Assembly (NCBI GenBank): GCA_965214835.1
Contig: CBDCCK010000002.1
Location: 64,001-128,000, forward strand
From: Nitrosopumilaceae archaeon
Lineage (GTDB): Archaea > Thermoproteota > Nitrososphaeria > Nitrososphaerales > Nitrosopumilaceae
DNA length: 64,000 nucleotides
Reading direction: 5' to 3'
A program made the translations under genes and the position numbers. This document shows, piece by piece, positions 8,174 through 58,050 of this stretch. Within the stretch, counting starts at the first letter, position 1; each line of letters opens with the position of its first letter. The notes under the pieces are model-generated. The model saw only the letters and a list, made by a program, of their open reading frames with translations. It was not told where the DNA came from and ran no database searches.

Positions 8174-10339
8174 TTACCGGCCTGCATCCCGGCGCCGGGG
8201 CCGGGAGGATATTGCGCGGTCAAGGCCGGAGAACGCCTCACCTAGCGCGCTGCCGGAGAGGCAGGAGCGCACGGCCATGGCGTATGCCGACTGCACGTCC
8301 GCGTCACTGATGGTGCTGCACCAGCGCATGGCAGACGCCTTTTCTGCGGTGAGGGGGTCGTCCGGATCGCAGTGGCGGCTGATCATTCCGACCAGCCTTG
8401 CGCCCTCCACCGCAAGGTCTTCCACGCACAGCCGGTCTGGCACGTGCATGACAGACATGTACAGCTCAAACGAATGCAGGCCCGGGTGCACCGCTATCAC
8501 GCCGTCTTCTATGTGGAGGCCCTCGCACTCCCGAAAGTCCGGCGCGTCAAATATACGCACCCTGAGGCCGGTTTGCAGTATGCCGGTCCCGGAAAGGATT
8601 CCGAGGCTTGTCTCGTACAGTATACGGCCGCACCTCTCCACAAAGTCCGAAAGGGACACGGAGCCTGGAAGCGGCGGGCTGTGCACGCATACGGTATTCC
8701 TCTCAAGGCGGTGGATGTAGCGCCTGTACAGGTCGGGATCCCCGTGGCGGCCTCCCAGGGGGCTAAAGTCATGGTAGCACCATCTGCGCCGCTTCCACGC
8801 ATCCATGATCCACTCAAAGTCGTCCCGCCCGGGTGCGCAGATGACATCGCCGTCTGCCTCGTCATCGTATATGGACATCGCCCGTCTGCCGTCAAGCGCA
8901 TACAGTGCAGTCTTTCGCTGCGCGCGGGCGCTGGACTGGAGGGAGTTCCTCTTGACGTATGCTGACAGGGTCTCAAAGCCTGCCTCGGCCATCAGCAGGT
9001 CGTCGACGAGGCTCCGGTCGTCCGGCCGGAAGACTGGGACTGCGCGATCGTGGAGCTCGACTGCCTTGATCTTGCGGGAGTCAAGCGACTTTGTGAGCAG
9101 CGGCAGCCGCGCGTGGCGGCCGGGGCGGTTGAGCAGTGACGCAAGCGAATGCTGAGAGCCGTCGGCAGTCACGCCATTGCTGATGACGATCTCAGAGAAG
9201 CGCCGGTCGTGTCCTGGAACGTCAATGCCGTTTCTTGTCGCCGTGTCAAGCATCCAGTTTTCCCGCCGGCCTATGTGCTCGGCAAGCGAGGTGGCAGCCA
9301 TCGAGGAGAGCCTGTCTTCAATCATCAAGTCTATGCGCCCGTCGATCATCTTCTCGGTGGATGCGGAAAACCCGTCCCGGGTGGGCAGCGGAGGGATCGC
9401 CCGCTCGTCCTTGATGTGGACGACGACATAGGAGAAGACGTTCTTGTACCTGCCATTGTACTGGTAGTCTATCGGCATCCTTGCAATGAAGGACTTGGGG
9501 CCGCTCTTGTACGATCCGTTGTTGCATGCGGCAACATCCATGAGGCCGTCTGACATGTACAGCATGTGGCCGGGCTCAAACCGGTTATTGTACACGCCGC
9601 CTACGATGCCGCGGGCAATCCCCCTGACGGAGCTGCCGCGCACGTATTTGTCGGTGATGTCTCCGTCAGAGTCGGTGATGATGATCCTTGTCGGAATGCC
9701 GCTGAGCAGCGCGCAGCCCCTTACGTGGAAGGCGATGGGCTCCTTGGCCGCGTCCGGACGCATGGTCATCGTGATGCGCGTGCCGTACGAGTCCAGATCT
9801 GCAGGAGCATCCATGATCTGGAATCCGATCCCGCCCTTGCCCATTATTCCGTATTTCTCGCCGGTCTCGCGGGAATACGAGTCGACGATACACACGTCTG
9901 ATATGGTCATATAGCTGGCAAAGCCCATACCGAACTGGCCGGACTCTGACCCGTCAAAGTTGTCGCTGCGGCCGAGTACGGACACTATCTCAAGGAAGCG
10001 CTCCTGGGATATGCCCATCGAGTCTGTACCGTGAATGACCAGCTGGCGCGTCTGCTCGTTTATACTAATATGTATCTCGGGGCTGGCTCCGTGCTCGCGC
10101 ATTGCCGTCCGGCAGGCGCGCGCCTCGTTTGCGTACAGCTCGCGTATTCCCGACAGTGGTCCGGTGTACAGATCACGCGATATCCTCTGTATTATGACGT
10201 CATTTTCCATGCGGACAGGTATGAGTCCGGTTTTGCCGTCGACGGCATCTGCAAGCCTGCCTGCATACGAGGAGTCGATGTCGGCATCGCACGCGGACTC
10301 GGCGGCAATGACGGGCTTTGATACCCTGATCTTACCCAT
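8174..10339 (-). CDS. HSP90/GHKL-type ATPase domain protein, paralog 1
   Basis: LY..P.SGIRELYANEARAC (N box), DSMGIS (G1), GQFGMG (G2), GTRI. Confidence 0.88.
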   Translation of the reverse strand: MGKIRVSKPVIAAESACDADIDSSYAGRLADAVDGKTGLIPVRMENDVIIQRISRDLYTGPLSGIRELYANEARACRTAMREHGASPEIHISINEQTRQLVIHGTDSMGISQERFLEIVSVLGRSDNFDGSESGQFGMGFASYMTISDVCIVDSYSRETGEKYGIMGKGGIGFQIMDAPADLDSYGTRITMTMRPDAAKEPIAFHVRGCALLSGIPTRIIITDSDGDITDKYVRGSSVRGIARGIVGGVYNNRFEPGHMLYMSDGLMDVAACNNGSYKSGPKSFIARMPIDYQYNGRYKNVFSYVVVHIKDERAIPPLPTRDGFSASTEKMIDGRIDLMIEDRLSSMAATSLAEHIGRRENWMLDTATRNGIDVPGHDRRFSEIVISNGVTADGSQHSLASLLNRPGRHARLPLLTKSLDSRKIKAVELHDRAVPVFRPDDRSLVDDLLMAEAGFETLSAYVKRNSLQSSARAQRKTALYALDGRRAMSIYDDEADGDVICAPGRDDFEWIMDAWKRRRWCYHDFSPLGGRHGDPDLYRRYIHRLERNTVCVHSPPLPGSVSLSDFVERCGRILYETSLGILSGTGILQTGLRVRIFDAPDFRECEGLHIEDGVIAVHPGLHSFELYMSVMHVPDRLCVEDLAVEGARLVGMISRHCDPDDPLTAEKASAMRWCSTISDADVQSAYAMAVRSCLSGSALGEAFSGLDRAISSRPRRRDAGR

Positions 10340-10812: not shown

Positions 10813-13137
10813 TCACGGCGTCTGCCGCGCGGTAGCATCATCAGCGGCATCAGCAGAAGCCGGACTGCCGCCGACTGTGATGGCAGCATCAAGCCGCCTG
10901 ATTATGTGCATCATCTCGATGCGGTCTGACACAGATGCGCCGCCGAGTCTGGAGTCCATCTCCATCAGCGCCCTCTTGCTGCCGCTGTTACTCACGGCAG
11001 ACAGCGCCGATATCAACTCCTGCAGGTACCGGCGGTCAAGATTGGCCCATCCGGCACGCCTGAAAAGGTGTGACGGAATCGCCGCCCTGCACTTTGCGTC
11101 CAGATCGGCCTTTGCGACGGGCTCAAGACTGCACGCGGCACCTGTCCTGAGGGACGCATATATCACGTACATGTCCTGCTCGCACACAACATCGCTGTCT
11201 CCTCTACGGTGCATATCCCTTCCAATGCCAGTCGATGTGCGGTCATACAGGACTAGAACCCGGTCTGAAAATATGCCGGCATCATGCCACGTCCCGTCAC
11301 CTTCCCCGTCAAGGTACGCGCCGCCTGCCCTTACTGGCCGCCCGTCAGCAAGCATGTCGCGGCCGCTGACAAGCCCGGCACTGGTGTGGTACATGTGATC
11401 TCCAAGTCGCTCGATCCACTGCTCAAGCGGGATCCCGACGCGCCCGTCAAGGCCGCCGGCACGCGCGCACAGGATCGTGCTGATCAGGTGCAGGCCCGAC
11501 AGCGCATCCCTGAATCTCTTCCAGGACTCCTTGGAAACGATCACCGTTCCCTGGGTGACGCGGGTGGAGGGAGCCGTATACTGCTTCTTCCAGCGGCCAA
11601 ACCGGCATCCGTGGACTGCGACGCTCCTTGCAGGCGCAGTCACGCTGCCCCCGGGTGGCCGTGCAAGGCGGTTCTGCCTTGCGTATTTGCCAAGAGTCTG
11701 GACTCCGAGCCTCTCATAATCGCCAACGAGGCGCACGTCATCTGGCCGGAACACGATGATCGACGGGTCATGCTTGTAGACGCGCATGACGAGGTCTGCG
11801 GTGAGCCTTTTGGTCACGAGTATGGGATGGTAGGAATCCTCGATCATGTGTGTGACGGGAAAGATGTATGGCTGGCCGGTAAAGCAGTTCATCTGCGTCC
11901 CGCGCGCCAGTGCCAGATCCATTACCTCGGCGTTGTGGGGCGATACCGGCATCATGACCGGCCCGCCGTGAGCACTCCGGCTGCACCGGCGGTACATGTC
12001 ATATATCACCATGGATCCCGGGCTTGCAAAGAACTCCGGAATGTCCATGTCTGGCAGCGAGAAGAGGCGCCTGTCTATTGCGGCATCTATCCGCGTGTCA
12101 AGCAGGTCAGACCCCGCATCGGACATCCTCTCCCTGTCAGGCGTCGGCTTGTACCTGCGCTCGTCAAGTATGTTGGCGTATATGTTCAGTGAACATCCGG
12201 CGTATTTGCCGCCATACATGTAGTTTATGGGGATCCCGCACAGGTATGACCTGGAGGGCGGGCATTCGTTGCCAGGCGCATAGGTCACGACCACGTCGAC
12301 GTCGGCGTCGCTGATCTCCATGACATAGCAGTCGCCAAACGTCTCGTCTGTTATCTTGCGCGAGTCATCTATTTGGCGGTTCTCGCGCGTCCAGTCGTTG
12401 TAGGTCGCAATGTCGAGGAGATCCTCTGCGCCGACCTTCGAGTAGCCGTCACTGCCACAGTCTCTGCCTGTCACCTTTACGTATGTCGGCACGCCGCTCA
12501 GCCTTGCACAGTCCTTGATCATCCCTATGATGTGGGACCCGGCATTCACGTCCTTTCTGTATGTCATGGTTATGCGCGTCCCGTAAAAGTCCATCTTCGG
12601 CTCAGGCAGGCCGGTCTGGAATCCCAGTCCGCCCTTGCCCATGACCGCATAGCAGTCGCCGCCGCGCGTCCTGGTCTCCAGGATCATGACGTCGGATATG
12701 CACGTATATGCGGCGCGCCCGAATCCGAACTGGCCGGACTCTTTTCCGTCAAAGTTCGTAGAGCGGCCAAGCACGCAGTATACGTCACGGAAGACCTCCC
12801 AGGACATGCCCAGGCTGTCACGGCCCTCAAGCACGATCCTACGCTCGTCAGTATCCACCGAAAGGAATATCTCAGGTGCGGCACCGTGCTCCCTTCTTGC
12901 GGTGCGGCACGCGCGGGCCTCGTTGGCATACAGCTCGCGAATTCCGGACGCAGGGCTGGCATACAGATCCCTGGATATCCTCTGTGCTACGACGTCGCTC
13001 TCAAGCGACGTGTCGATGAACCCGTCGCGTGTTCCTGGAGGGAGTGCTCCTCCGGCGTTTCCGGGGGCCTCCATGGCGACGGGGCCCTCGGTCGCGATTA
13101 CAGGGGTGTAGTATTTCTTCTTCTTCTTCTTGCTCAT
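10813..13137 (-). CDS. HSP90/GHKL-type ATPase domain protein, paralog 2
   Basis: IRELYANEARAC, DSLGMS, GQFGFG motifs. Confidence 0.88.
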   Translation of the reverse strand: MSKKKKKKYYTPVIATEGPVAMEAPGNAGGALPPGTRDGFIDTSLESDVVAQRISRDLYASPASGIRELYANEARACRTARREHGAAPEIFLSVDTDERRIVLEGRDSLGMSWEVFRDVYCVLGRSTNFDGKESGQFGFGRAAYTCISDVMILETRTRGGDCYAVMGKGGLGFQTGLPEPKMDFYGTRITMTYRKDVNAGSHIIGMIKDCARLSGVPTYVKVTGRDCGSDGYSKVGAEDLLDIATYNDWTRENRQIDDSRKITDETFGDCYVMEISDADVDVVVTYAPGNECPPSRSYLCGIPINYMYGGKYAGCSLNIYANILDERRYKPTPDRERMSDAGSDLLDTRIDAAIDRRLFSLPDMDIPEFFASPGSMVIYDMYRRCSRSAHGGPVMMPVSPHNAEVMDLALARGTQMNCFTGQPYIFPVTHMIEDSYHPILVTKRLTADLVMRVYKHDPSIIVFRPDDVRLVGDYERLGVQTLGKYARQNRLARPPGGSVTAPARSVAVHGCRFGRWKKQYTAPSTRVTQGTVIVSKESWKRFRDALSGLHLISTILCARAGGLDGRVGIPLEQWIERLGDHMYHTSAGLVSGRDMLADGRPVRAGGAYLDGEGDGTWHDAGIFSDRVLVLYDRTSTGIGRDMHRRGDSDVVCEQDMYVIYASLRTGAACSLEPVAKADLDAKCRAAIPSHLFRRAGWANLDRRYLQELISALSAVSNSGSKRALMEMDSRLGGASVSDRIEMMHIIRRLDAAITVGGSPASADAADDATARQTP

Positions 13138-16812: not shown

Positions 16813-18228
16813 CAGTAGTTCCTCGATGTACTTTTGCAGGCACGATAATTACGCAATTTGCCGAGATTTTTTGACCATCATACTATAGATCAGGCGGTGT
16901 GCCAACCATCATCATGATACCAACACAAAACGACGTGTTTGCACACCAGTTTGACATAACATCGAGACAGTTTAAAACATTGCGACGGCGGTTTCCCAAG
17001 CTCGGGCTGGCCGTCTCAAAGAGTCGCAACGCAGTGTATGACCACATCGACGCACTGCGCGTTCTATATTTCATGTCTGAGAGGAGGATGTTTGCAGAAT
17101 CTGCCGTGACGCACCTTCGCAGGCGGGCCTCAAAATGCAGCAGGCAGCAGCATGACGACGGGGCTGCCTCCAAGGGCGGCGCGTATAGTTGCCGTACGCC
17201 TAGTCCGGACTGGATCCTAAAGGCGATCCGGGGCGTCAGCCTGGATGATGCGCAAAAGTGGTGCAGCTCCATGCTGCAGCATACGGTAAGGTGCGCCCGC
17301 AGGTCAGGCATGCTGCACAACACGGACGTCGTGGCAGTGGACGTTACCGACGTGGAATACTATGGCAAGGGCCTGGAGGATATCGCCAGAAAGTCAAAGC
17401 CCAAGAACGGCACGTCGACGTTTCTCTCGCACATTACCATGCACGGAATAGGATCAGATGACGGGTCTGACCTCGTGCTTTCCTCGCTGCAGCTTCCAAA
17501 AGAGGCAAAACTGGCCGATTTCGTGCCTAAAATGATCCGCAAGGCGTCCAGATCAGGGATGAGGATCAAGACGTTCCTGTATGACCGCGGGTTCTTTAAC
17601 GTGGACTGCATGAGGGCTGCAGAAACAAGCACGGGCAGCTACATCATGCCTGCCGTCAAGAACAGGAGGATAGTGGCGGCAATAGAGGAGCATGACCGCG
17701 GAGAACGCGGTGCGGTATCAAAATATACAATGACCAACAAGGACGGCAAGAGCGCCACATTCAGGCTAGTCATTGTGGAAAAGGACGAGGTAGAAAAGGA
17801 CGGCACGGCAGCAGCAAAGAAGGACAAGGCAGAAGAGACCATAGCCGACAGGTATCTGGTCTTTGCCACCAACATGTCTGCTAAAAGTGCAGAGGCAGTC
17901 ATTGAGCAGATACCGGAGGAGTACCGCAGTCGGTGGGGAATCGAGACCGGGTTCAGGGTGATCAAGGGGATAATGGGCAAGACGTGCAGCAATTCCCCGG
18001 TCGTCAGGCTGCTGCTGTTCTATATGTCTGTCATACTGTACAACCTGTGGAGGACTGCCGTGTTCATAGACGTGGAATCCAAGTGGGACGGATTTGCAGG
18101 AGGGAAGGGGTTTACCATGATGCTGTTTGTCGCGTGCATTGTCGATGCGGCCGACTCGTTTGTAAACGATCGCGGAAAGTAGCGGAGGTGCCGTGTCGGG
18201 TCTGCAAAAGTACATCTAGGAAGTACTG
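16813..18228 (+). mobile_element. ISH3-like (IS4 superfamily) insertion sequence
   Basis: ~27-bp terminal inverted repeats CAGTAGTTCCTCGATGTACTTTTGCAG / CTGCAAAAGTACATCTAGGAAGTACTG; AATT duplicated on both sides. Confidence 0.9.
16899..18182 (+). CDS. DDE transposase
   Basis: VAVDVT, LYDRGFF, YRSRWGIETGFR (YREK-type) motifs. Confidence 0.93.
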   Translation: MPTIIMIPTQNDVFAHQFDITSRQFKTLRRRFPKLGLAVSKSRNAVYDHIDALRVLYFMSERRMFAESAVTHLRRRASKCSRQQHDDGAASKGGAYSCRTPSPDWILKAIRGVSLDDAQKWCSSMLQHTVRCARRSGMLHNTDVVAVDVTDVEYYGKGLEDIARKSKPKNGTSTFLSHITMHGIGSDDGSDLVLSSLQLPKEAKLADFVPKMIRKASRSGMRIKTFLYDRGFFNVDCMRAAETSTGSYIMPAVKNRRIVAAIEEHDRGERGAVSKYTMTNKDGKSATFRLVIVEKDEVEKDGTAAAKKDKAEETIADRYLVFATNMSAKSAEAVIEQIPEEYRSRWGIETGFRVIKGIMGKTCSNSPVVRLLLFYMSVILYNLWRTAVFIDVESKWDGFAGGKGFTMMLFVACIVDAADSFVNDRGK

Positions 18229-18688
18229 AATTGGCGTATGTCTCATAGTACAGCTCCTGGGCGTCATGAATCTCGTCCTCTACAAAGTTCATGGTACGGA
18301 GGATGTCGGTGTTTGGTATGATCACCGCCCTGGCATCCTCCCTGAGCCCTGCTGCTAGCTTTTCCTCAGGCGATGCCGGGACGTACCCTGCAAACGCATC
18401 CTCCTCTTCCTTGCCGCCGCCGCCGGAGGTGATCTCGTGGATTACCTCGTATTTGCCGCAGGCGCGGCTGTTCTCCAGGTGATCCCCAAAGGAGAACCTG
18501 TCGCAGTCGATCTTGAAGAGGCGCGTGGTGCCGGGTATGGCATCATCAGGCCCAAAGAACACCGAGAGCCAGACGCGCCTCCCGTCGGTCTCCACGCACC
18601 GGAATCCGGTTCCGCCGTGCGCCAGATCGTCATATATCCCGCGTATCAGGGTGTCGATCTGCGAGTTTATCTCCACGATGTCGCTCAT
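18020..18688 (-). CDS. Hypothetical protein whose stop codon was hit by the IS
   Basis: Removing the IS restores ...TAC GCC AAT TGA; the frame currently reads into the IS end. Confidence 0.65.
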   Translation of the reverse strand: MSDIVEINSQIDTLIRGIYDDLAHGGTGFRCVETDGRRVWLSVFFGPDDAIPGTTRLFKIDCDRFSFGDHLENSRACGKYEVIHEITSGGGGKEEEDAFAGYVPASPEEKLAAGLREDARAVIIPNTDILRTMNFVEDEIHDAQELYYETYANSVLPRCTFADPTRHLRYFPRSFTNESAASTMHATNSIMVNPFPPANPSHLDSTSMNTAVLHRLYSMTDI

Positions 18689-23666: not shown

Positions 23667-24543
23667 CGACGCGCCTCATCTGCTCCATGGTGGAGCCAAA
23701 GCTTCCGCTGCCATGCGAGATGGCCTGCGTCAAATCGTTGAACACCTTCCACTGCGAGACCTTTTGCGTTATGGCTACCTTGTTGTTTTCCGGGTCGACT
23801 TCTATGTAGGGCAGCTTGCCATAGACGCGCTTTGGCATGTGGCTTACGACCTTTGCTGCCTGTTTTTCGAGAAGCTCGGCCTTTTTCATGGCGCGGTAGC
23901 TGCGGATGACGGCATCAGCAGACTTTATGACCTGCTTGATTGCCGGCAGGACGGTCTTCGTGTTCAGGGACTTTGTGTGTCTCTTGGAGACGGATGCCAG
24001 TGTCTGCGTCTTGTTCAGCCCGAGGTTTGCAGTTATCTTCTCGCCGTTTACCACCTTGAGCATTTTTTCAGAGTGGAGGTGCAGCATAAAGTTGCTGCAT
24101 ACCTCCCTGAAGGTAAAGATGGCAACACTGAAGGATCTCGAGCCGTCGATCGCGTTTCCGACGCTGTATCCCAGGTTCACGCGGTCGCCCTCGCCGGTTA
24201 TGTCCACGCCCTCGCGGAACGTGTACAGCGCCGACATGCTTGCAAGGTTCTTGCTTGCAAGGACGTGATCGTGTACCTCGTACCTTGAGAACCACTGGCG
24301 GTCATCAAAGACAAACGGTTTGGCGTCAAGCTTTTCTGCCATGCGGTCTGCCTTTTCTATGACCAGCTCGTTTGGAAGCACCTGGTACTTGTCTGAGAGA
24401 ATGGCGATGGGCTCGCCCTTTCTCTCTATAAACTGGTATTTGCCCCAGTCCTTGCCGTTTGCATGTATGCCGTACGTCTTGATTCCGTACTTGCGGAAGC
24501 TCTCCCTCCTCTTGATGGAGAGCCTGCTTCGTGTCTGTGACAT
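23629..24543 (-). CDS. DUF932-like protein
   Basis: ILSDKYQVLPNE, NAIDGSRSF, REVCSNFM, RHT, WKVFNDLT signatures. Confidence 0.8.
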   Translation of the reverse strand: MSQTRSRLSIKRRESFRKYGIKTYGIHANGKDWGKYQFIERKGEPIAILSDKYQVLPNELVIEKADRMAEKLDAKPFVFDDRQWFSRYEVHDHVLASKNLASMSALYTFREGVDITGEGDRVNLGYSVGNAIDGSRSFSVAIFTFREVCSNFMLHLHSEKMLKVVNGEKITANLGLNKTQTLASVSKRHTKSLNTKTVLPAIKQVIKSADAVIRSYRAMKKAELLEKQAAKVVSHMPKRVYGKLPYIEVDPENNKVAITQKVSQWKVFNDLTQAISHGSGSFGSTMEQMRRVDAIFAAHGRRGA

Positions 24544-37099: not shown

Positions 37100-39247
37100 T
37101 CATGATGATGATGCAGATGACAGCTTCCGGTCAAGCCCGGCCAGTATGTTCCCGATGGCGACATGATTGTTCTTTGCGTCAAGTATGGCAGCGTAGGCCT
37201 CCCTGATGTCCGCATTCGATATCGACTCGTATGCGTCAGACACCGAAAGCATGTGCCTTGTCACGCTGCCGCCATCCATCGCATCACCCCACATCCTTTT
37301 CAGAAGCGGGGGGCTACCGTCGGCAAGGTCGTCGACGCACAGTCTGTCGAGGAGCCTGCCGGCTGCCACGCACAGCTCAAGCGGGTGCGACCCAAGGTCG
37401 ACCAGTATCTTCCCGTCGGGGATCCGGAGATCCCCGCATTCTTCGAGGGAGACCTCGTCGAGTACGACGACCTCAAGGCCGGTCTGAGCGATATCCCATC
37501 CGGACATGACGCCAAGGCTGGTATTGTACAGTATCCTGCCGCACATCCTCCTGAACGCATCCAGGGTGATTGCGCGGGGAGGGGGGCTGTTGCGCACGCA
37601 CATTCTGTATTTTTCGCCATAGCTTGCGTCGAAAAACGGCGTTTTTCTGAAGTAGTCGAACCTGTGTGAAGAGTGTGGATAGCGGGTGTAATGGCTCTCC
37701 CATATCGATGACAGCATCTTCATCTCGTCATTTGTGACGCAGATGACGCCGTCATCCACGTCTCTCTCGTACTTGTCGCAAAGCTTGGCGCCCATCATGG
37801 AATACATCACTATCCTTCTTCCACCGCTAGCCGAAGGCTTTAGGCCGTGACGCCTGATATAGCCGTCAATGGTCTCAATCCCAGAGCCTGCAACGAGCGG
37901 ATCGTCTACGATTCCTGCGTCGTCCGGACGGAAGACGCGGACGTCAGGAGAGTGCTTGTAGACCGCAACAAGCTTGATGCGGCTCGGATTTTTTGCGAGC
38001 AGCAGGCGCCACTGGTGGCCGCCACGATCCATTAGATCCCCGAGACGGCAGGAGGTGCCGTCGACAACCCCGCCCTCGCACAGGACAATCTCCGAGTACC
38101 GGCGGTTGTGTCCCGGGATGTCAATGCCCTGGTCCACTGCCAGGTCAAGAATGCAGTTTTCAGGGCGGTTTATGTGCTCCCTGAAGGATGGGGCGGCCAT
38201 CGAGGACAGCTTTTCTGTGATCATAGAGTCGATGTGCCTGTCAATTCTCATGCCGGTATCTGCAGGAAACCCGTCCCTGTTTGGCAGCGGTCGAAACCTG
38301 CGCTCGTCCTTGACGTGCACTACCATGTCGCCTGCTATGTGCTCAAACGCGCCGGCATACGTGTAGTTGATCGGCATTCGCGCAAGAAACGACGCGACTG
38401 ATGATACGGGACGTCCGGCATCGGCTGCCACCTCGATCAGGTCGTCAGACATGTGAAGCAGCGGCCGCAGTTCAAGCCGTGAATTTGCAGGCGCCCTGCC
38501 GGAAGGACGCGCCATCTCCAGGACCGAGCTTGGCTGCGTGCACATATCAGACAGTATGTTTCCTGACGCGCCAGCCACGGTAATACTCGTTGCGACGCCG
38601 CTGAGCGCGGCGCAGTGGCCTATATACGACTCGAGGGGCTCCCCGACAGCATCAGAACGCATTGTCATCGTGATGCGCGTGCCGTACGAGTCAAGATCTG
38701 CAGGAGCATCCAGGATCTCAAAGCCGAGCCCGCCCTTTCCCATTACTCCGTATTTCTCGCCGGTCTCGCGGGAATACGTCTCGACGATACACACGTCTGA
38801 TATGGTCATGTAGCTGGCAAAGCCCATGCCGAACTGGCCTGACTCTTCCCCGTCAAAGTTGTCGCTGCGGCCCAGCACGGACACCACCTCAAGGAAGCGC
38901 TCCTGGGATATACCCATCGAGTCCACACCGTGTATTACCAACTGGCGGGTCTGCTCGTTTATACTAATATGTATCTCGGGACTGGCGCCGTGCTCTTTTT
39001 TTGCGGTCCGGCAGGCGCGCGCCTCGTTTGCATACATCTCGCGTATTCCGGACAGCGGGCCCGTGTACAGGTCGCGTGAGACGCGCTGTATCATGACGTC
39101 GTGCTCCATGCGGACCGGTATGAGCCCCGTCTTTGGATTTACGGCGCCTGCAAGCCTTTTGGCATGCGAGGAGTCAACGCCAGCAACACATGCGGACTCG
39201 GCGGCAATTACGGGCTTTGATATCCTGATGCCGCTCATTGCCTGCAT
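37100..39247 (-). CDS. HSP90/GHKL-type ATPase domain protein, paralog 3
   Basis: IREMYANEARAC, DSMGIS, GQFGMG; the N-terminal DNA is highly similar to paralog 1. Confidence 0.88.
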   Translation of the reverse strand: MQAMSGIRISKPVIAAESACVAGVDSSHAKRLAGAVNPKTGLIPVRMEHDVMIQRVSRDLYTGPLSGIREMYANEARACRTAKKEHGASPEIHISINEQTRQLVIHGVDSMGISQERFLEVVSVLGRSDNFDGEESGQFGMGFASYMTISDVCIVETYSRETGEKYGVMGKGGLGFEILDAPADLDSYGTRITMTMRSDAVGEPLESYIGHCAALSGVATSITVAGASGNILSDMCTQPSSVLEMARPSGRAPANSRLELRPLLHMSDDLIEVAADAGRPVSSVASFLARMPINYTYAGAFEHIAGDMVVHVKDERRFRPLPNRDGFPADTGMRIDRHIDSMITEKLSSMAAPSFREHINRPENCILDLAVDQGIDIPGHNRRYSEIVLCEGGVVDGTSCRLGDLMDRGGHQWRLLLAKNPSRIKLVAVYKHSPDVRVFRPDDAGIVDDPLVAGSGIETIDGYIRRHGLKPSASGGRRIVMYSMMGAKLCDKYERDVDDGVICVTNDEMKMLSSIWESHYTRYPHSSHRFDYFRKTPFFDASYGEKYRMCVRNSPPPRAITLDAFRRMCGRILYNTSLGVMSGWDIAQTGLEVVVLDEVSLEECGDLRIPDGKILVDLGSHPLELCVAAGRLLDRLCVDDLADGSPPLLKRMWGDAMDGGSVTRHMLSVSDAYESISNADIREAYAAILDAKNNHVAIGNILAGLDRKLSSASSS

Positions 39248-40901: not shown

Positions 40902-43181
40902 TTATTTGTCGTTTCCAAGCCTTGCATCGGCGTCAAGCGCCAGTGCAAGCATCTTCTCTACATTTTCGGTGTCGGCGTTGCGGTTTGCCAGCAGCCAGAA
41001 CATCCTGCTTATGGTCTTGTCGCGTATCCCGAGCTCCCCGTGAAGGTACAGCATCTTGTGGCGCGACGTGACATAACTCAGGCACTCGCCGGAGTGCTCC
41101 TTCATGTTATTACTCATGACGTCTTTGATGTCGCAGTACTTGTCGGCGGACTTGCCGGTTCTGTCATACCAGGCAGTAGAGATCTTGTAGGGGATGCGCC
41201 TGGCGCTGAGGCACGCCTCCAGTTCAAAGAGGCGGTCACCGGTCTCGATGACGAGCAGCTTTTTGTCTGATTTGACAAGCTCTGCAAGCCTGGGCCAGTT
41301 ATGGAGTACAAGGACTATGTCCTTGCCGGCAGCAGGCATATGCGCAGGGAGCATCGGCCCCTCGCTTGTGACATACGCCGAGCCTTCGGCAGTCCTGATA
41401 AGATCGTCCTCCCGTATGCAGGAGCCGGAGAGCGCACTGGAGGGCTTGGTCAGGCAGTATCCGGTGTCCCAGCGCCCGAGGATTTTGCGCATGACAGGCA
41501 TCCTGCCGTTGTTTACGACGACAGTCATCCTGCCAACGTCTGCAACGCCCCTTCTCTCAGAGAGTACCACGCCTTTTTCCCCGGCCCTTTCCCTGTGGAA
41601 GTGGACTGGGACCTCGGTGACCGCAGGCGGCGCCATACGTTTGACTGCCAGGCCGTGCCTTTTGATGTACCCGTCAAGCGTCTCAATTCCAAGACCCGTG
41701 AACCTGTCCATCCAGACAGACGGATCATCGGGCCGGACGACCTCGATGCCGGGATCATGGCAGCGTACGGCATCGACCTTGGACTTTTCCATCTTTTCGG
41801 CTGCCAGGAACCGGCTGCCGCTGCAGAGTCCGAGCCTTGTGCGGCCGCCTCTGCTGTTACGAACCTGGTGTCTTGCGACTGCCAGGATCTCCTGCATCTG
41901 CTGATCGGACTCACTCCAGAGATTCTCGTCAATGCATGTCATCAGCGTCCGTTTTGGGTGGGAGAGATACTCCTCAAGCGTACCAACGCAGAACTGCTCT
42001 TTGAAGCATTTCTTGAATGCGGCATCAATGCCTGCGGTGATCCTTTTAGACGAGCCGTCGCTGAGCCTCTCCCGGTCAGGGGTAGGCGGGTACTTGCGCT
42101 CGTCAAGTATGTTGACAAACATCCTGGCGCAGTGGTATTTCAAGAAGCCGCCATAACCGTACTCGATTGGAATCCTTGCAAGAAACGTCTGCGCCGCAAA
42201 ATTGTAATGTGGGGTCTCGATTTTGCCGTTCTTCGTCCGTATGATTCTGAACACACAGGCAGCATCAAAGTCGTCATCGCCGAACTCAAAGACGTATGAT
42301 CCCAGAGACTGGTTGCCATTACAGGAGTTGAACAGGGGCTCGTCTTCCGCGCATCTTCCGGCCATCCCGGATATGGTTTCGGGCAGATAGGAGTGCGTTC
42401 CCTCCTCATACGTGTTGGCATACTCGGCACTGACGCGGGATCTGAGGTTCAGGATTGTGGGAACCCCGCTGAGTCGTGAGAGGAACTTTATCATGTCGCA
42501 TAGATGCACCATGTCGATCTTCTCGTACAGGGTGAGGCTTATCCTGGTTCCAAAGTGATCCATGTCAGGCTCCGGCAGCCCCGTCTGGAACCCCATCCCG
42601 TTCTTTCCCAGGACCGAGTACTTTTTGCCGGTCTCCCTAGAGTGGACGTCCATGATCATTATCTCTGACAAACACAGGTATGCGGCGCGTCCGAACCCGA
42701 ACTGCCCGTTCTCCGTTCCCTCAAAGTTGGTGGAGCGGCCAAGGACGGTATACACGTCGGTAAACGTCTCCCAGCTCATACCCATCGAGTCGATGCCCTC
42801 TATTGCCAGGCTGCGGTTTACAGGATCAAGGGTTATCTCTATGCGGGAGTCGGCGCCGTGATGTTTCATTGCGTGGCGGCACGCGCGGGCCTCGTTTGCG
42901 TACAGCTCCCGCAGGCCCGAACTGGCATGCTCGTACAGGTCGTGCGATATCCTCTGGATTACCACGTCCTCCTCCAGGGACGTCCTGATGAACCCGTCCT
43001 TTGTGCCGTCAGGCAGGGAGCCTGTACTGCCGGGGTTTGGGATAGGAAGCGGCTTTTCTGATATTATCTCCGGCTTGTAGTATTTTGTCCCGCTCAAGCC
43101 AGAGCAGTCATCAGAGTCACCCATCGTACGGCACCGGTCCGGATCGCGGGATCGTGGTGCGGCCAGGGGACTTTCCGTCAT
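40902..43181 (-). CDS. HSP90/GHKL-type ATPase domain protein, paralog 4
   Basis: LRELYANEARAC, DSMGMS, GQFGFG motifs. Confidence 0.88.
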   Translation of the reverse strand: MTESPLAAPRSRDPDRCRTMGDSDDCSGLSGTKYYKPEIISEKPLPIPNPGSTGSLPDGTKDGFIRTSLEEDVVIQRISHDLYEHASSGLRELYANEARACRHAMKHHGADSRIEITLDPVNRSLAIEGIDSMGMSWETFTDVYTVLGRSTNFEGTENGQFGFGRAAYLCLSEIMIMDVHSRETGKKYSVLGKNGMGFQTGLPEPDMDHFGTRISLTLYEKIDMVHLCDMIKFLSRLSGVPTILNLRSRVSAEYANTYEEGTHSYLPETISGMAGRCAEDEPLFNSCNGNQSLGSYVFEFGDDDFDAACVFRIIRTKNGKIETPHYNFAAQTFLARIPIEYGYGGFLKYHCARMFVNILDERKYPPTPDRERLSDGSSKRITAGIDAAFKKCFKEQFCVGTLEEYLSHPKRTLMTCIDENLWSESDQQMQEILAVARHQVRNSRGGRTRLGLCSGSRFLAAEKMEKSKVDAVRCHDPGIEVVRPDDPSVWMDRFTGLGIETLDGYIKRHGLAVKRMAPPAVTEVPVHFHRERAGEKGVVLSERRGVADVGRMTVVVNNGRMPVMRKILGRWDTGYCLTKPSSALSGSCIREDDLIRTAEGSAYVTSEGPMLPAHMPAAGKDIVLVLHNWPRLAELVKSDKKLLVIETGDRLFELEACLSARRIPYKISTAWYDRTGKSADKYCDIKDVMSNNMKEHSGECLSYVTSRHKMLYLHGELGIRDKTISRMFWLLANRNADTENVEKMLALALDADARLGNDK

Positions 43182-46976: not shown

Positions 46977-47410
46977 TAAAACACCTTTTTTTGGTTGTCT
47001 CTTGGCACTGTCGTCATGACAGTGCAACGGCACGGCATTCTTTCCCGCGCCCGGTGTGATGCTGTAAAAAAACACATGATATGGGCCAGGTGACATCCGG
47101 CCCAAATGACACATGATAGAATCTTCATGCGCCGCTATACTGCGGAAAACTGTTCTCGGACTCCCACACCTGCCTGCCTGTCAGCCTACAATAGTAGGTA
47201 ATGCAGGATTTGGAGGCCGCTGTCAGGTCACGAAAAAATTGGGGTTTGGACCGTCTACATGCGGCCCGTGTTCAGATACGCACAGTTGGGACATGCCGTC
47301 ACATGCCTCCTGCCTTCCACACCTGCCTGCCTGTCAGCCCTTTCGGGTATTGCAGGGTTTGAAAACAGTTGCCAGGTCACTAAAAATGTTGGATGCGTGC
47401 AGCCCCGAGG

Positions 47411-48191: not shown

Positions 48192-48312
48192 GTTGTTTGT
48201 TCCTTCGGACTCCCACACCTGCCTGCCTGTCAGCCTACAAAGTAGGTAATGCAGGATTTGGAGCCCTTGTCAGGTCACTAAAAAATTTATGGTGTTTGAA
48301 GGAACAGGATTC

Positions 48313-48741: not shown

Positions 48742-48883
48742 TTTTTCTCCATTTGGCGTCTCACTCGCCGTGCATTTCCCACACCGGCCTGCCTGTCAGC
48801 CCCGTGCCGCAATGGGACGGGATGATGCCGGTTTGGAATGGTTGGCAGGTCATAAAAAAAATAAAGGGGTGTTACGGCCTTTT

Positions 48884-53342: not shown

Positions 53343-53537
53343 TGTAATGTGTAACATGGAAAAAATGGGGGATGGGATGCGACAAACAGCCGCATCCGGA
53401 TGAGGGGACTTTAGTCCCAGATTTCCCGGTCTTCGGGATCCTCTTCGAACTCGCGGATTATGCGAGGGTAAAAGGGTGTCTTTTTCTTTTTGGAATTCAT
53501 TACTGAAATTTCTGGAATCAGGAAATGCCAAAGTCGG

Positions 53538-55195
53538 CGGAGTTATATGGTGGGATAATTGTACAGGAAATGGTGATGAGGGCTCAGACTGCTCCCTGTC
53601 TTCATTGCATCGCAGTGATGCTCAGAATGAATGGTGTCTCATCATCGCCCTCGTTTGTGTAGCAGAATAATGCGGGAATCTAATCGGCAAAGCAGGTTGG
53701 AGTTATATTACAGAATAATGATTCAGGAAATGGTGATGAGGGCTCAGACAACGCCAGATTCATCATGAATCAGACTGGGGGTGTCTCATCATCGCCCTCG
53801 TTTGTGTAGCAGAATAATGCGGGAATTTTCAAAGTCAGAATGGCTGGAGTTATATGGTGGAGTGTGGTACGAAACATGGTGATGAGGGCTCAGATGTCAC
53901 GGCTTTCTTCATAGCCACGACAGGCTCGGAGATTATTGCTGATCTCGGCCCTTTGTTCTTCATCATCGCCCTCGTTTGTGTAGCAGAATAATGCGGGAAT
54001 TTTCAAAGTCAGAATGGCTGGAGTTATATGGTGGAGTGTGGTACGAAACATGGTGATGAGGGCTCAGACAACGCCAGATTCATCATGAATCAGACTGTGT
54101 GTGTCTCATCATCGCCCTCGTTTGTGTAGCAGAATAATGCGGGAATTTTCAAAGTTGGAATGGCTGGAGTTATATGGTGGAGTGTGGTACGAAACATGGT
54201 GATGAGGGCTCAGACAACGCCAGATTCATCATGAATCAGACTGTTGGTGTCTCATCATCGCCCTCGTTTGTACAGCATAATTTGCAGAAGTTTCTGCTTC
54301 AAAGTTGGCTGGAGTTATATGGTGGAGTGTGGTACGAAACATGGTGATGAGGGCTCAGACTGATCTCTGTCGTCATTGCATCGCAGTGATGCTCAGTATG
54401 AATGGTGTCTCATCATCGCCCTCGTTTGTGTAGCGGAATAATGCGGGAATCTAATCGGCAAAGCAGGTTGGAGTTATATTACAGAATAATGATTCAGGAA
54501 ATGGTGATGAGGGCTCAGATAGGTAGCTGTCTTCATTCACGAAGTCAGAATAACAGGCTGTCATCATCGCCCTCGTCTGTGTAGCGGAACAATACGGGAA
54601 TCTCGGCGGCAAATCAGGTTGGAGTTATATGGTGGGATGATAATTCAGGAAATGGTGATGAGGGCTCAGACTGACTCGACCGTCATTGCATCACAATGAT
54701 GCTCCGGATGAATGGAACTCATCATCGCCCTTGTTTGTGTAGCGGAATAATACGAAAATCAAAAGTTAGAATGGCTGAAGTTATATGGTGGAGTGTGGTA
54801 CGAAACATGGTGATGAGGGCTCAGAATGCTAACTGTCTTCATTCGTGAAGTCAGTATAACAGGCTGTCATCATCGCCCTCGTTTGTGTAGCAGAATAATG
54901 CCGGAATGACCGGGTTGGAGTTATATTGCAGAATGATGATTCGGGAAATGGTGATGAGGGCTCAGACCTATAGCTGTCTTCATTCGTGAAGTCAGAATGA
55001 ATGGAACTCATCATCGCCCTCGTTTGTGTAGCAGAATAATGCGGGAATCTAATCGGCAAAGCAGGTTGGAGTTATATTGTGGAATGATAATTCAGGAAAT
55101 GGTGATGAGGGCTCAGATAGGTAGCTGTCTTCATTCGTGAAGTCAGAATGAATGGAACTCATCATCGCCCTCGTTTGTGCAGCGTAATAATGCCG
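53538..55195 (-). ncRNA. Tandem array of 11 box C/D guide RNA units (53578-53652, 53738-53799, 53884-53973, 54058-54119, 54204-54265, 54349-54423, 54509-54574, 54660-54732, 54815-54880, 54956-55021, 55107-55172)
   Basis: Each unit reads GAGGGC-G-AUGAUGA(C)-guide-CUGA(D')-loop/stem-AUGA(U/A/C)GA(C')-guide-CUGA(D)-GCCCUC, with K-turn geometry and roughly 10-13-nt guides; D' is variant (CCGA, CGGA) in units 3 and 8. Confidence 0.93.
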
Positions 55196-55271
55196 GGATG
55201 GATCTGTATCTCAATCAAGTCGGACAGTCAGTTGCAGGGGGGTATAATGCTCAAAAAATGGCTGGTTTTGC

Positions 55272-55508
55272 CGTCCTCGAATTCGGGGACGCTTGGCGGA
55301 TTTTTCGGCGTTTTTGAAGAGTTGTCTTAAAGATAGAGATTTTTCCTAATGTTGCAGTTCTGTTTTGTTTGGGATTATTCCCGGTTTTTTGTGCCTACCT
55401 CTGGATCTTTTGTATTAAGGACGTTTTGCGGGGGTATACTATCCAGTTTTTGGGGGCGTCCCCGATACCGGGGACGGAGGGGCAAAAGCGTCCCCGAATT
55501 CGGGGACG
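55272..55508. promoter_or_regulatory. Three 20-bp palindromes CGTCCCCGAATTCGGGGACG (55272-55291, 55457-55476, 55489-55508); candidate centromere/operator
   Basis: One perfect and two near-perfect copies directly upstream of the actin-like gene. Confidence 0.7.
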
Positions 55509-55547
55509 CCTTTTTGGCCATTAAATGCAAACCGTGCTGCGGTATGC

Positions 55548-56459
55548 ATGGGAAGAAGCACAGAGTCCACGCCGGCCGGCGGGAAGGCGGCATCTCTAGG
55601 AGGCGCCGACATCGCCGTCGGGCTGGACATCGGGACAGGATCAGTCAAGGTCGCGACCAGAAGGCACCGCTTCAAGTTCCCGTCGGTCGTGGCAAGGGGC
55701 CGGGCAATATCCGTCGACGGCTCGGAGCCCGAGTCCGTGTTTGTCGGGGAGCAGGCAATGCGGCAGGAGCACGTCAGGTCCATGCTGCTCAAGACGCCAG
55801 TATACCGGGGGGTGCCGACTGCGATGGACGACTATATCGAGCTGGTGCGGCACGCCCTCGACCTGGTGATCAGGGCCGACAGGAACACGGTCTGGCACGG
55901 GCCGTCAGGATACTCGGAGATGGCAATAGTGGCAGGCATCCCGTACAACTCGCGGGACAGGGTGGAGGCCATAAAGAAGGCAGTGCAGGCCGAGTTTGCC
56001 CCGCACAGGTTCGGCGTGATGTTCCAGGCCAGGGCAACGCTTGAAAACGAGGGGATGAGGGACGGAATAGTGTGCCATATCGGCCACGGGACGACAGAGA
56101 TGATGGCGGTAATCGGCGGGAACACCGCATACGGGGAGACCGTGCCTCACGGCGTGGGAGACGTCGTCATGGCAGTCACGGGATCCAGGACAGGATACAC
56201 CGACCACTCGGTGTTTGCTTCGGGCTCGCAGCTGCTGGCAGAAAACAGGCGCATACTTGCCGGCCACATAGCCGACAGCCTTGAGAAGATAGTCATAGAC
56301 TATCCGGGGCTGGACGTGGTGTTTGCAGGCGGCGGGGCGCTTGTACCGAAGCTGGTAGGCGAGATACGGGTCAGGACGTCGGGGACTGTCAGGACGGCAG
56401 ACGAGCCGGTGTTTTCAAACGCCCTGGGAATGCTGAAGAAGGCGACGGGGCTGTGCTGA
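55548..56459 (+). CDS. Actin-like ATPase (ParM/StbA/MreB superfamily)
   Basis: GLDIGTGSVK (phosphate 1), HIGHGTTE (phosphate 2), FAGGGA (adenosine), F.NALG. Confidence 0.85.
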   Translation: MGRSTESTPAGGKAASLGGADIAVGLDIGTGSVKVATRRHRFKFPSVVARGRAISVDGSEPESVFVGEQAMRQEHVRSMLLKTPVYRGVPTAMDDYIELVRHALDLVIRADRNTVWHGPSGYSEMAIVAGIPYNSRDRVEAIKKAVQAEFAPHRFGVMFQARATLENEGMRDGIVCHIGHGTTEMMAVIGGNTAYGETVPHGVGDVVMAVTGSRTGYTDHSVFASGSQLLAENRRILAGHIADSLEKIVIDYPGLDVVFAGGGALVPKLVGEIRVRTSGTVRTADEPVFSNALGMLKKATGLC

Positions 56460-57939: not shown

Positions 57940-58050
57940 GTAACAGGTCGGGCTCTGGAAGTTCAGGCATGAATTTTACCACCAAAGAGGCCTCCGCAGA
58001 TGTAATTCGTGCCTAAAATCACAAGTCACTTCCAAAGTCCGAGCTGTTAC
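57940..58050. mobile_element. 111-bp MITE with GTAAC termini and 8-bp target duplication (IS66-like ends)
   Basis: GTAACAGGTCGGGCTCTGGAAGT...ACTTCCAAAGTCCGAGCTGTTAC flanked by CCTTTAGT on both sides. Confidence 0.85.

Follow-up and report, generated by a model that had tools for sequence, protein, structure and literature searches.

A tandem array of putative box C/D guide RNA genes in an accessory region of a Nitrosopumilaceae genome

In the prevailing view, mesophilic archaea possess few box C/D guide RNAs, which occur singly or in twos and threes. Tandem C/D arrays that are redundant and contain many orphan guides are represented by the polycistronic small nucleolar RNA (snoRNA) clusters of plants and by mammalian SNORD115/116. 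A virus-encoded C/D RNA is represented by v-snoRNA1 of Epstein-Barr virus, which is a single gene of an animal virus. The locus described here lies in a 64,000-nt stretch (termed the window) of a Nitrosopumilaceae archaeon, namely C2:64001-128000 of an assembly in two contigs that totals 3.22 Mb, has a G+C content of 52.6%, and is 99.95% complete (GCA_965214835.1; C2, contig CBDCCK010000002.1). It likely consists of 11 tandemly repeated archaeal box C/D small RNA (sRNA) genes that guide methylation of the organism's own RNAs.

The locus resembles the described archaeal box C/D sRNAs (Rfam snoPyro_CD RF00095, sR1, sR14, and others) in its C and D boxes, 12-nt spacers, and terminal stem, in the D' and C' boxes of its canonical units, and in guides directed to transfer RNA (tRNA) and to conserved parts of ribosomal RNA (rRNA), namely the peptidyl-transferase region and helices 68-71. 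PMC4644070 and PMC7994747 present helices 68-71 (helix-71 region) and the peptidyl-transferase region as archaeal guide hotspots and describe duplication and recombination of guide modules. The review PMC7994747 has archaeal C/D genes clustering in twos or threes, whereas here 11 units follow each other head-to-tail with near-identical spacers, in a mesophilic Nitrosopumilaceae host with only about four other candidates. Plant clusters, which PMC7994747 also names, and SNORD115/116 share with the array the many tandem C/D genes, the redundancy, and the orphan guides. However, they are eukaryotic and processed from long host transcripts or introns, whereas here a TATA-like box precedes each unit on an archaeal chromosome. 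Epstein-Barr virus v-snoRNA1 would be an analogue if the region of the array were a mobile element using the host fibrillarin; it differs in being one gene of an animal virus, and no viral hallmark gene was found around the array. Compared with the literature consulted, the new features are the organization as 11 tandem genes, the occurrence in a mesophilic Nitrosopumilaceae genome with fewer candidates elsewhere than in the array, surroundings that are accessory, resemble a mobile element, and are common to a congener, and a guide directed to A2451 (Escherichia coli numbering). Literature searches, in which the string "C/D" is not searchable, yielded no thaumarchaeal or viral C/D sRNAs; the available part of PMC7994747 contains no occurrence of Thaumarchaeota or viruses, and a survey of thaumarchaeal integrated mobile genetic elements (PMC6563490) mentions neither sRNA nor snoRNA nor fibrillarin. 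With an 11-gene array in an accessory region, guided rRNA methylation appears as a trait that ammonia oxidizers can gain and that varies between strains. The locus also lends itself, as a clean natural system, to following the duplication, recombination, and decay of guide modules.

Architecture of the array and complementarity of its guides

The 11 head-to-tail units (U1-U11, Table 1) measure 62-90 nt and recur with a period of 141-174 nt. Along the minus strand, on which the RNAs are read, a unit is composed of the terminal stem, the C box, the D' guide, the D' box, a linker or hairpin containing the C' box, the D guide, and the D box. The terminal stem reads GAGGGC...GCCCTC and comprises 6 bp in 10 units; in U8, where it starts with AAGGGC, it comprises 5 bp. 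The C box, (G)ATGATGA, and the D box, CTGA, are present in 11/11 units. The D' box is CTGA in nine of the 11, takes the degenerate form CGGA in U8, and is missing from U3. The C' box reads TGATGA in U2, U4, and U5, which display the canonical C/D'/C'/D layout, and is of a degenerate AATGA type in seven units. Guide spacers have a length of 12-13 nt at D' and 12 nt at D. Four backbone types can be distinguished: U2/U4/U5 (62 nt), U1/U6/U8 (73-75 nt), U7/U9/U10/U11 (66 nt), and U3 (90 nt). The spacers between the units occur in two or three mosaic versions. An A/T-rich, TATA-like box is located approximately 45-55 nt upstream of the units in this genome (G000), of those in the congener G004, and of stand-alone C/D genes, and these boxes would fit individual archaeal promoters with a short leader. 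The Rfam family snoPyro_CD matches U2 at 45.7 bits (gathering cut-off 45). In a permissive Rfam scan of window positions 53400-55300, all 41 matches at E<=0.1 belong to C/D-box families and lie on the minus strand; they cover 10/11 units, with U3 lacking any. By its C and D boxes, terminal stems, guide complementarity, and covariance-model matches, the array is assigned to the archaeal box C/D sRNA family, albeit with internal D' and C' boxes that are canonical in U2, U4, and U5 only.

Guides were scored at positions 2-11 from box D or D' against the genome's own rRNA, which is encoded by one operon on the minus strand (small subunit (SSU), C2:2959898-2961368; large subunit (LSU), C2:2956751-2959751). 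The null consisted of 300 shuffles for each of the 17 distinct guides, 5100 in total. Site numbers were transferred by alignment to E. coli K-12 rrsH/rrlH, and two LSU sites were also mapped on the 23S rRNA of another strain. The D' guides of U8, U10, and U11, which read GTTCCATTCAT(C/T/T), form 11 Watson-Crick pairs with the LSU and thereby place N+5 at A2076 (E. coli 23S A1969, helix 71). Those of U7 and U9 (CAGCCTGTTAT) form 10 Watson-Crick pairs with the LSU, N+5 being A2554 (E. coli 23S A2451), which is located in the peptidyl-transferase center. The D guide of U2, U4, and U5 (ATCTGGCGTTGT) forms 10 Watson-Crick pairs with the SSU, and its N+5 is C909 (E. coli 16S C970, helix 31). The perfect score of 10 was reached by 15/5100 shuffles, as opposed to five distinct real guides at three sites, and each perfect guide was equalled by 0-4 of its own 300 shuffles. 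The U1 D guide (ACAGGGAGCAGT) forms nine Watson-Crick pairs and one G-U pair with the SSU at C1327 (E. coli 16S 1386); its score of 9.5 was equalled by 2/300 of its own shuffles and by 118/5100 of all shuffles, and the match on its own appears marginal. The other 11 distinct guides were no better than shuffles in the rRNA scoring (48-300 of 300 equal them).

Most of these rRNA assignments had been made in the initial annotation, for which no database was searched, and they hold. The complementarity given there is exact for the D' guides of U8/U10/U11, for the D guide of U2/U4/U5, and for the D' guides of U1 and U6 (GACACCATTCAT(T/A)), and the pairing of the U1 D guide with one G-U is correct. 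The three rRNA sequences that had been named there (GCATGAATGGAAC, GTCAACGCCAGAAATCTTACC, and CCCTGCTCCTTGCACACACC) are all found in the genome's own rRNA, and the three named sites are right for this genome, with N+5 aligning to 23S A1969, 16S C970, and 16S 1386. The comparison with shuffled guides that it had proposed likewise favors the real ones at the perfect score. Among the guides that had been left unplaced, two now have a target (U7/U9 D' at A2451 and U3 D at tRNA-Asp), and 10 slots remain orphans.

In a comparison with 65 tRNA candidates called by aragorn, all 10 scored positions of the U3 D guide (AAGCCGTGACAT) were complementary to the tRNA-Asp(GUC) anticodon stem-loop, N+5 being C36. 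Hence, the 22 guide slots are divided into eight with a perfect rRNA match (three sites), one with a marginal rRNA match, one with a tRNA match, two with a partial match (D' of U1 and U6, 8 bp with the A2076 site), and 10 orphans. Thus, 10/22 slots (eight perfect, one with a G-U, and tRNA-Asp) are complementary over at least 10 nt to an rRNA or tRNA whose target nucleotide is at N+5. Genome-wide, 10- and 11-mer complements of the orphan guides occur at chance level only (expected 6.1 and 1.5), and complements in 5S rRNA, RNase P RNA, or signal recognition particle (SRP) RNA were not found. A tRNA-Thr(UGU) called by aragorn at window positions 23939-24034 was considered as a target of the U4 D' guide (one mismatch) and rejected; it lies inside a DUF932 open reading frame (ORF) and has no Rfam support.

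The proteins that would act with such RNAs are encoded in the genome as single copies outside and far from the window: fibrillarin (287 bits, C2:360409), Nop5 (230 bits, C2:361373), and L7Ae (98 bits, C2:1297221). A strict scan of the genome, which required both the C and the D box plus a stem of 5 bp or more, returned 15 C/D candidates, 11 of which belong to the array. CTGA sites preceded by an rRNA-perfect guide and having TGATGA upstream number 11 genome-wide, with seven in the array; therefore, the array supplies most of the recognizable rRNA guides of this genome. The stand-alone candidates are listed in Table 1. Two of them, the paralogue of U3 and the candidate directed to tRNA-Ala, have the same GAGGGC/GCCCTC stem as the array and are flanked by the complementary arms GAATCAAAAG/CTTTTGATTC.

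Related arrays and genomic surroundings

The unit pattern occurs in 5/121 genomes of the family and in 2/27 genera, with arrays in three genomes of two genera. Within the same genus, G004 carries an array of its own with at least seven units and the stem ATGGGC/GCCCAT, and one of these units has the identical A2076 guide as its D guide. Three to four clustered units are found in G019 and pairs of units in G171. In G002, units of 98% identity are located at the end of a contig and show two substitutions in the D guide of U11; among the genomes of the species, the tandem pattern matched only this contig. Strain differences in guides fall in orphan guides. G001, which is of the same genus and 98% complete, contains neither the unit pattern nor either of the two guides searched. 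The guide directed to A2451 is found again in G021, a member of another genus, where a stand-alone C/D sRNA gene with a putative promoter uses it as its D guide, complementary over 12 nt. Between lineages, the terminal stems vary with compensatory changes (GAGGGC/GCCCTC, ATGGGC/GCCCAT, and GAGGGG/CCCCTC). Accordingly, the array is not regarded as core gene content but as an accessory addition restricted to certain lineages.

The surroundings of the array are rich in ORFans: of the 40 ORFs scanned with Pfam, 26 have no family. An actin-like segregation ATPase (ALP_N) is encoded at 55548-56459, and the other families nearby are two DNA methylases, DUF932, an SNase-like nuclease, and an insertion sequence (IS) transposase. 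A 20-nt palindrome (GCGTCCCCGAATTCGGGGACGC type) occurs three times between the array and the ATPase gene (55272-55292, 55457-55477, and 55489-55509); together with the ATPase, these copies form the layout expected of a ParM-type segregation centromere or operator. Four paralogous ORFs of 715-774 aa on the minus strand (8174-10339, 10813-13137, 37100-39247, and 40902-43181) show a weak GHKL/HSP90-like ATPase N terminus and come closest, among Atlas clusters, to viral RIIA-like/HATPase_c_3. G004 and Nitrososphaera chromosomes also encode homologues of these GHKL ATPases, and a search for a viral relative of the 721-aa ORF found none. The window shows no synteny with four congeners, and G004 encodes homologues of at least 10 window ORFs around its own array (G004:C1:1432000-1472000). 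Integrase, att repeat, capsid, terminase, and conjugation hallmarks were found neither among the 40 ORFs with Pfam nor in subsets of 10 ORFs with PHROGs, NCBIfam, and PADLOC; the latter returned nothing past a weak SNase match. No repeat of an att type accompanies the tRNA at 2617-2687 over 400 kb, and the array has no match in phage or plasmid collections or in IMG/VR. Because it is non-syntenic, has a counterpart in G004, and contains mobile-type genes, yet no hallmark genes, the region is described only as accessory and mobile-element-like.

Probable function of the array and competing explanations

The units probably arose through repeated duplication and recombination of guide modules. 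Each unit would be transcribed, trimmed to its stem, and bound by the chromosome-encoded L7Ae, Nop5, and fibrillarin, and the resulting ribonucleoprotein (RNP) would 2'-O-methylate its target five nucleotides from box D or D', where guide position 5 pairs with the nucleotide whose ribose is modified. The predicted methylation sites are LSU A2076, LSU A2554, SSU C909, and tRNA-Asp C36, perhaps also SSU C1327, and about half of the guide slots would be orphans or decayed copies, with the GGUGU variant discussed later included. A set of genes guiding methylation in this manner is favored because C and D boxes and stems are present in 11/11 units and the stems change in a compensatory way in relatives, because eight slots pair perfectly (10-11 bp) at three rRNA sites compared with 15/5100 shuffles, and because the tRNA-Asp pairing of the U3 D guide is common to a stand-alone paralogue. 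Further support comes from the presence of fibrillarin, Nop5, and L7Ae, from the recurrence of the A2076 guide in the G004 array and of the A2451 guide in G021, from the Rfam C/D families matching 10/11 units, with U2 above the cut-off, and from the TATA-like boxes preceding the units.

Several points weigh against such a function. C' is degenerate (AATGA) in seven units and D' in U8, and U3 has neither D' nor C'. No above-chance target was found for 10/22 slots in rRNA, tRNA, 5S, RNase P, or SRP RNA or genome-wide. Anticodon position 36, the predicted tRNA target, is not known to be a guided site. Transcription, RNP assembly, and actual methylation are deduced from sequence. A2451 poses a problem of its own: full methylation of this N+5 target should harm the ribosome because its 2'-OH is reported to be critical for peptide-bond formation (PMC13215694, citing Erlacher 2005 and Lang 2008). 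The guide is conserved in two genera despite this expected harm. Partial methylation, a guide acting as folding chaperone only, a shifted ruler, or a tolerated modification are possibilities. In the literature searched (main texts), no discussion of an A2451-equivalent guided site was found, and the main text of PMC4644070, a paper that uses alignment numbering, contains neither "2451" nor "1969." A conserved guide at A2451 raises the question of whether the catalytic ribose is really methylated and with what effect on the ribosome.

The redundancy of the array (three slots directed to A2076, three to C909, and two to A2554), its 10 orphan slots, the mosaic units with degenerate boxes in U3 and U8, and the strain differences that sit in orphan guides could also be explained by a selfish or decaying repeat, which would have grown from one or two working sRNA genes through unequal crossing-over and would now consist largely of redundant or dead copies. 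However, 10-11 of the 11 units have retained their boxes, terminal stems, and upstream elements, and arrays persist in three genomes of two genera, so that this explanation is considered improbable. The D' guides of U1 and U6 correspond to a GGUGU form of the A1969 site (GCATGAATGGTGT), whereas those of U8, U10, and U11 correspond to the GGAAC form (GCATGAATGGAAC). The initial annotation had interpreted the two versions, which share the 8-nt core ATGAATGG, as tuned to the LSU alleles of different hosts, which would here be the hosts of a mobile element, and had proposed a comparison of the taxa carrying either form. The genome's own LSU reads the GGAAC form (13-mer GCAUGAAUGGAAC), and this form is present in 146/301 genomes of the class. 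The GGUGU form is present in 11/301, as opposed to approximately nine matches for a backward-read control pattern; without two genomes flagged as unpublished (G157 and G298), the counts are 144/299 and 11/299. All six GGUGU matches inspected lie in unrelated sequence, none of them in LSU context. The first five bases of the U1/U6 D' guide, GACAC, are common with the D' guide of U2/U4/U5, and the remainder, CATTCAT, is common with that of U8/U10/U11; because its halves match two other guide groups, it looks like a recombinant (chimeric) or drifting copy and not like a guide for the allele of another host. In contigs of another study and strain, this guide reads GGAGU (T53635>A). The DNA contigs compared collapse within the repeats. 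With a variant that occurs at chance level, looks chimeric, and drifts between strains, tuning to host alleles can hardly be upheld.

The surroundings lend themselves to another explanation, namely that a mobile or plasmid-like element carries the array for its own service and thereby redirects the host fibrillarin machinery to reprogram or partly disable host ribosomes, with cassette-like gain and loss of guides. The 26 ORFs without Pfam family are in line with it, as is the mobile-element type of the remainder, that is, the ALP_N gene with its palindromes, the DNA methylases, DUF932, the SNase-like nuclease, the IS transposase, and the four GHKL-ATPase paralogues nearest to viral RIIA-like clusters. 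The missing synteny with four congeners, the related gene set with an array in G004, the absence of the unit pattern and of both guides searched from the close relative G001, and a guide aimed at the catalytic A2451 point in the same direction. On the other hand, searches for an integrase, att repeat, capsid, or terminase were negative, as were those for the array in the phage and plasmid collections and in IMG/VR, and the GHKL family also occurs in Nitrososphaera chromosomes. Moreover, another genus has the A2451 guide in an ordinary stand-alone gene, U3 is a copy of an sRNA from the chromosome, and the guides match the rRNA of the resident genome exactly. Cargo of this kind is, hence, rather unlikely. 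Very doubtful is the more far-reaching notion that an accessory, possibly mobile element with expandable guide cassettes retargets the host fibrillarin RNP to functional centers of the ribosome, including the 2'-OH of A2451, in order to tune or throttle host translation or to shield the peptidyl-transferase center from inhibitors, with guide modules turning over fast between strains. Genes guiding methylation of the organism's own RNAs remain the preferred reading of the array.

Feature coordinates and minor observations

Table 1. Units of the array (window coordinates) and stand-alone C/D candidates (C2 coordinates) with guides and predicted targets.
Feature	Size	Position	Strand	D' guide; target	D guide; target
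Whole tandem array (11 units, conserved spacers of ~80 nt)		53578..55172	minus		
U1	75 nt	53578..53652	minus	GACACCATTCATT; just 8 bp with LSU around A2076	ACAGGGAGCAGT; SSU C1327 (9 Watson-Crick + 1 G-U)
U2 (canonical C/D'/C'/D)	62 nt	53738..53799	minus	GACACCCCCAGT; orphan	ATCTGGCGTTGT; SSU C909 (E. coli C970)
U3 (no clear D'/C')	90 nt	53884..53973	minus		AAGCCGTGACAT; tRNA-Asp(GUC) anticodon loop, 10/10, N+5 = C36
U4	62 nt	54058..54119	minus	GACACACACAGT; orphan	SSU C909
U5	62 nt	54204..54265	minus	GACACCAACAGT; orphan	SSU C909
U6	75 nt	54349..54423	minus	GACACCATTCATA; 8 bp with LSU	ACAGAGATCAGT; orphan
U7	66 nt	54509..54574	minus	CAGCCTGTTATT; LSU A2554 (E. coli A2451)	ACAGCTACCTAT; orphan
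U8 (stem AAGGGC, D' box CGGA)	73 nt	54660..54732	minus	GTTCCATTCATC; LSU A2076	GGTCGAGTCAGT; orphan
U9	66 nt	54815..54880	minus	CAGCCTGTTATA; LSU A2554 (E. coli A2451)	ACAGTTAGCATT; orphan
U10	66 nt	54956..55021	minus	GTTCCATTCATT; LSU A2076 (E. coli A1969)	ACAGCTATAGGT; orphan
U11 (first unit in transcription direction)	66 nt	55107..55172	minus	LSU A2076	ACAGCTACCTAT (ACAGATACCCAT in related strain); orphan
Stand-alone candidate (paralogue of U3; identical tRNA-Asp guide, N+5 = position 36)		C2:1121384-1121463	plus		
Stand-alone candidate		C2:1620637-1620695	plus	tRNA-Ala(UGC), N+5 = position 36	
Stand-alone candidate (LSU E. coli 2441, one mismatch)		C2:1642789-1642841	plus		
Stand-alone candidate (perfect pairing at LSU 2613)		about C2:1775230-1775295	plus		

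The IS element occupies 16815-18235 with a DDE_Tnp_1 transposase (ORF 16899-18182), and several copies with 84-92% identity are present in G002. A repeat of approximately 110 nt (57940-58050) occurs in more than 40 copies with 73-95% identity across G002 contigs and resembles miniature inverted-repeat transposable elements. An intergenic element of approximately 75 nt is found on the minus strand at 47315-47386, 48211-48286, and 48773-48862, directly upstream of minus-strand ORFs. It is composed of oligo-T followed by GTGACCTG..CAAACC..hairpin..CTGACAGGCAGGC.GGTGTGGGA. Copies at approximately 80% identity lie beside the array of G004, and in G019:C31, the element is located immediately upstream of three of four C/D units; it may represent a shared promoter or leader module.

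In 41 genomes, the pattern of the A1969 guide has four matches outside arrays, all of which lack a C box and are attributed to chance, as are the four matches of the unit pattern in IMG/VR, which lie in coding DNA. Pairwise counts of differences in guides and in non-guide positions were mixed, and directed hypermutation of guides is not claimed. A separate tandem array of at least seven C/D-like units (87-94 nt, period approximately 140-290 nt) is present on the metagenome contig JADEYI010000258.1 (L034:10715-12070); its guides are nearly identical among themselves and have no match in the rRNA of the genome described here. Within the array itself, the D guides of U10 and U11 differ by an exact inversion of 6 nt (ACAGCT-ATAGGT vs ACAGCT-ACCTAT), and both guides are therefore partly complementary to each other.

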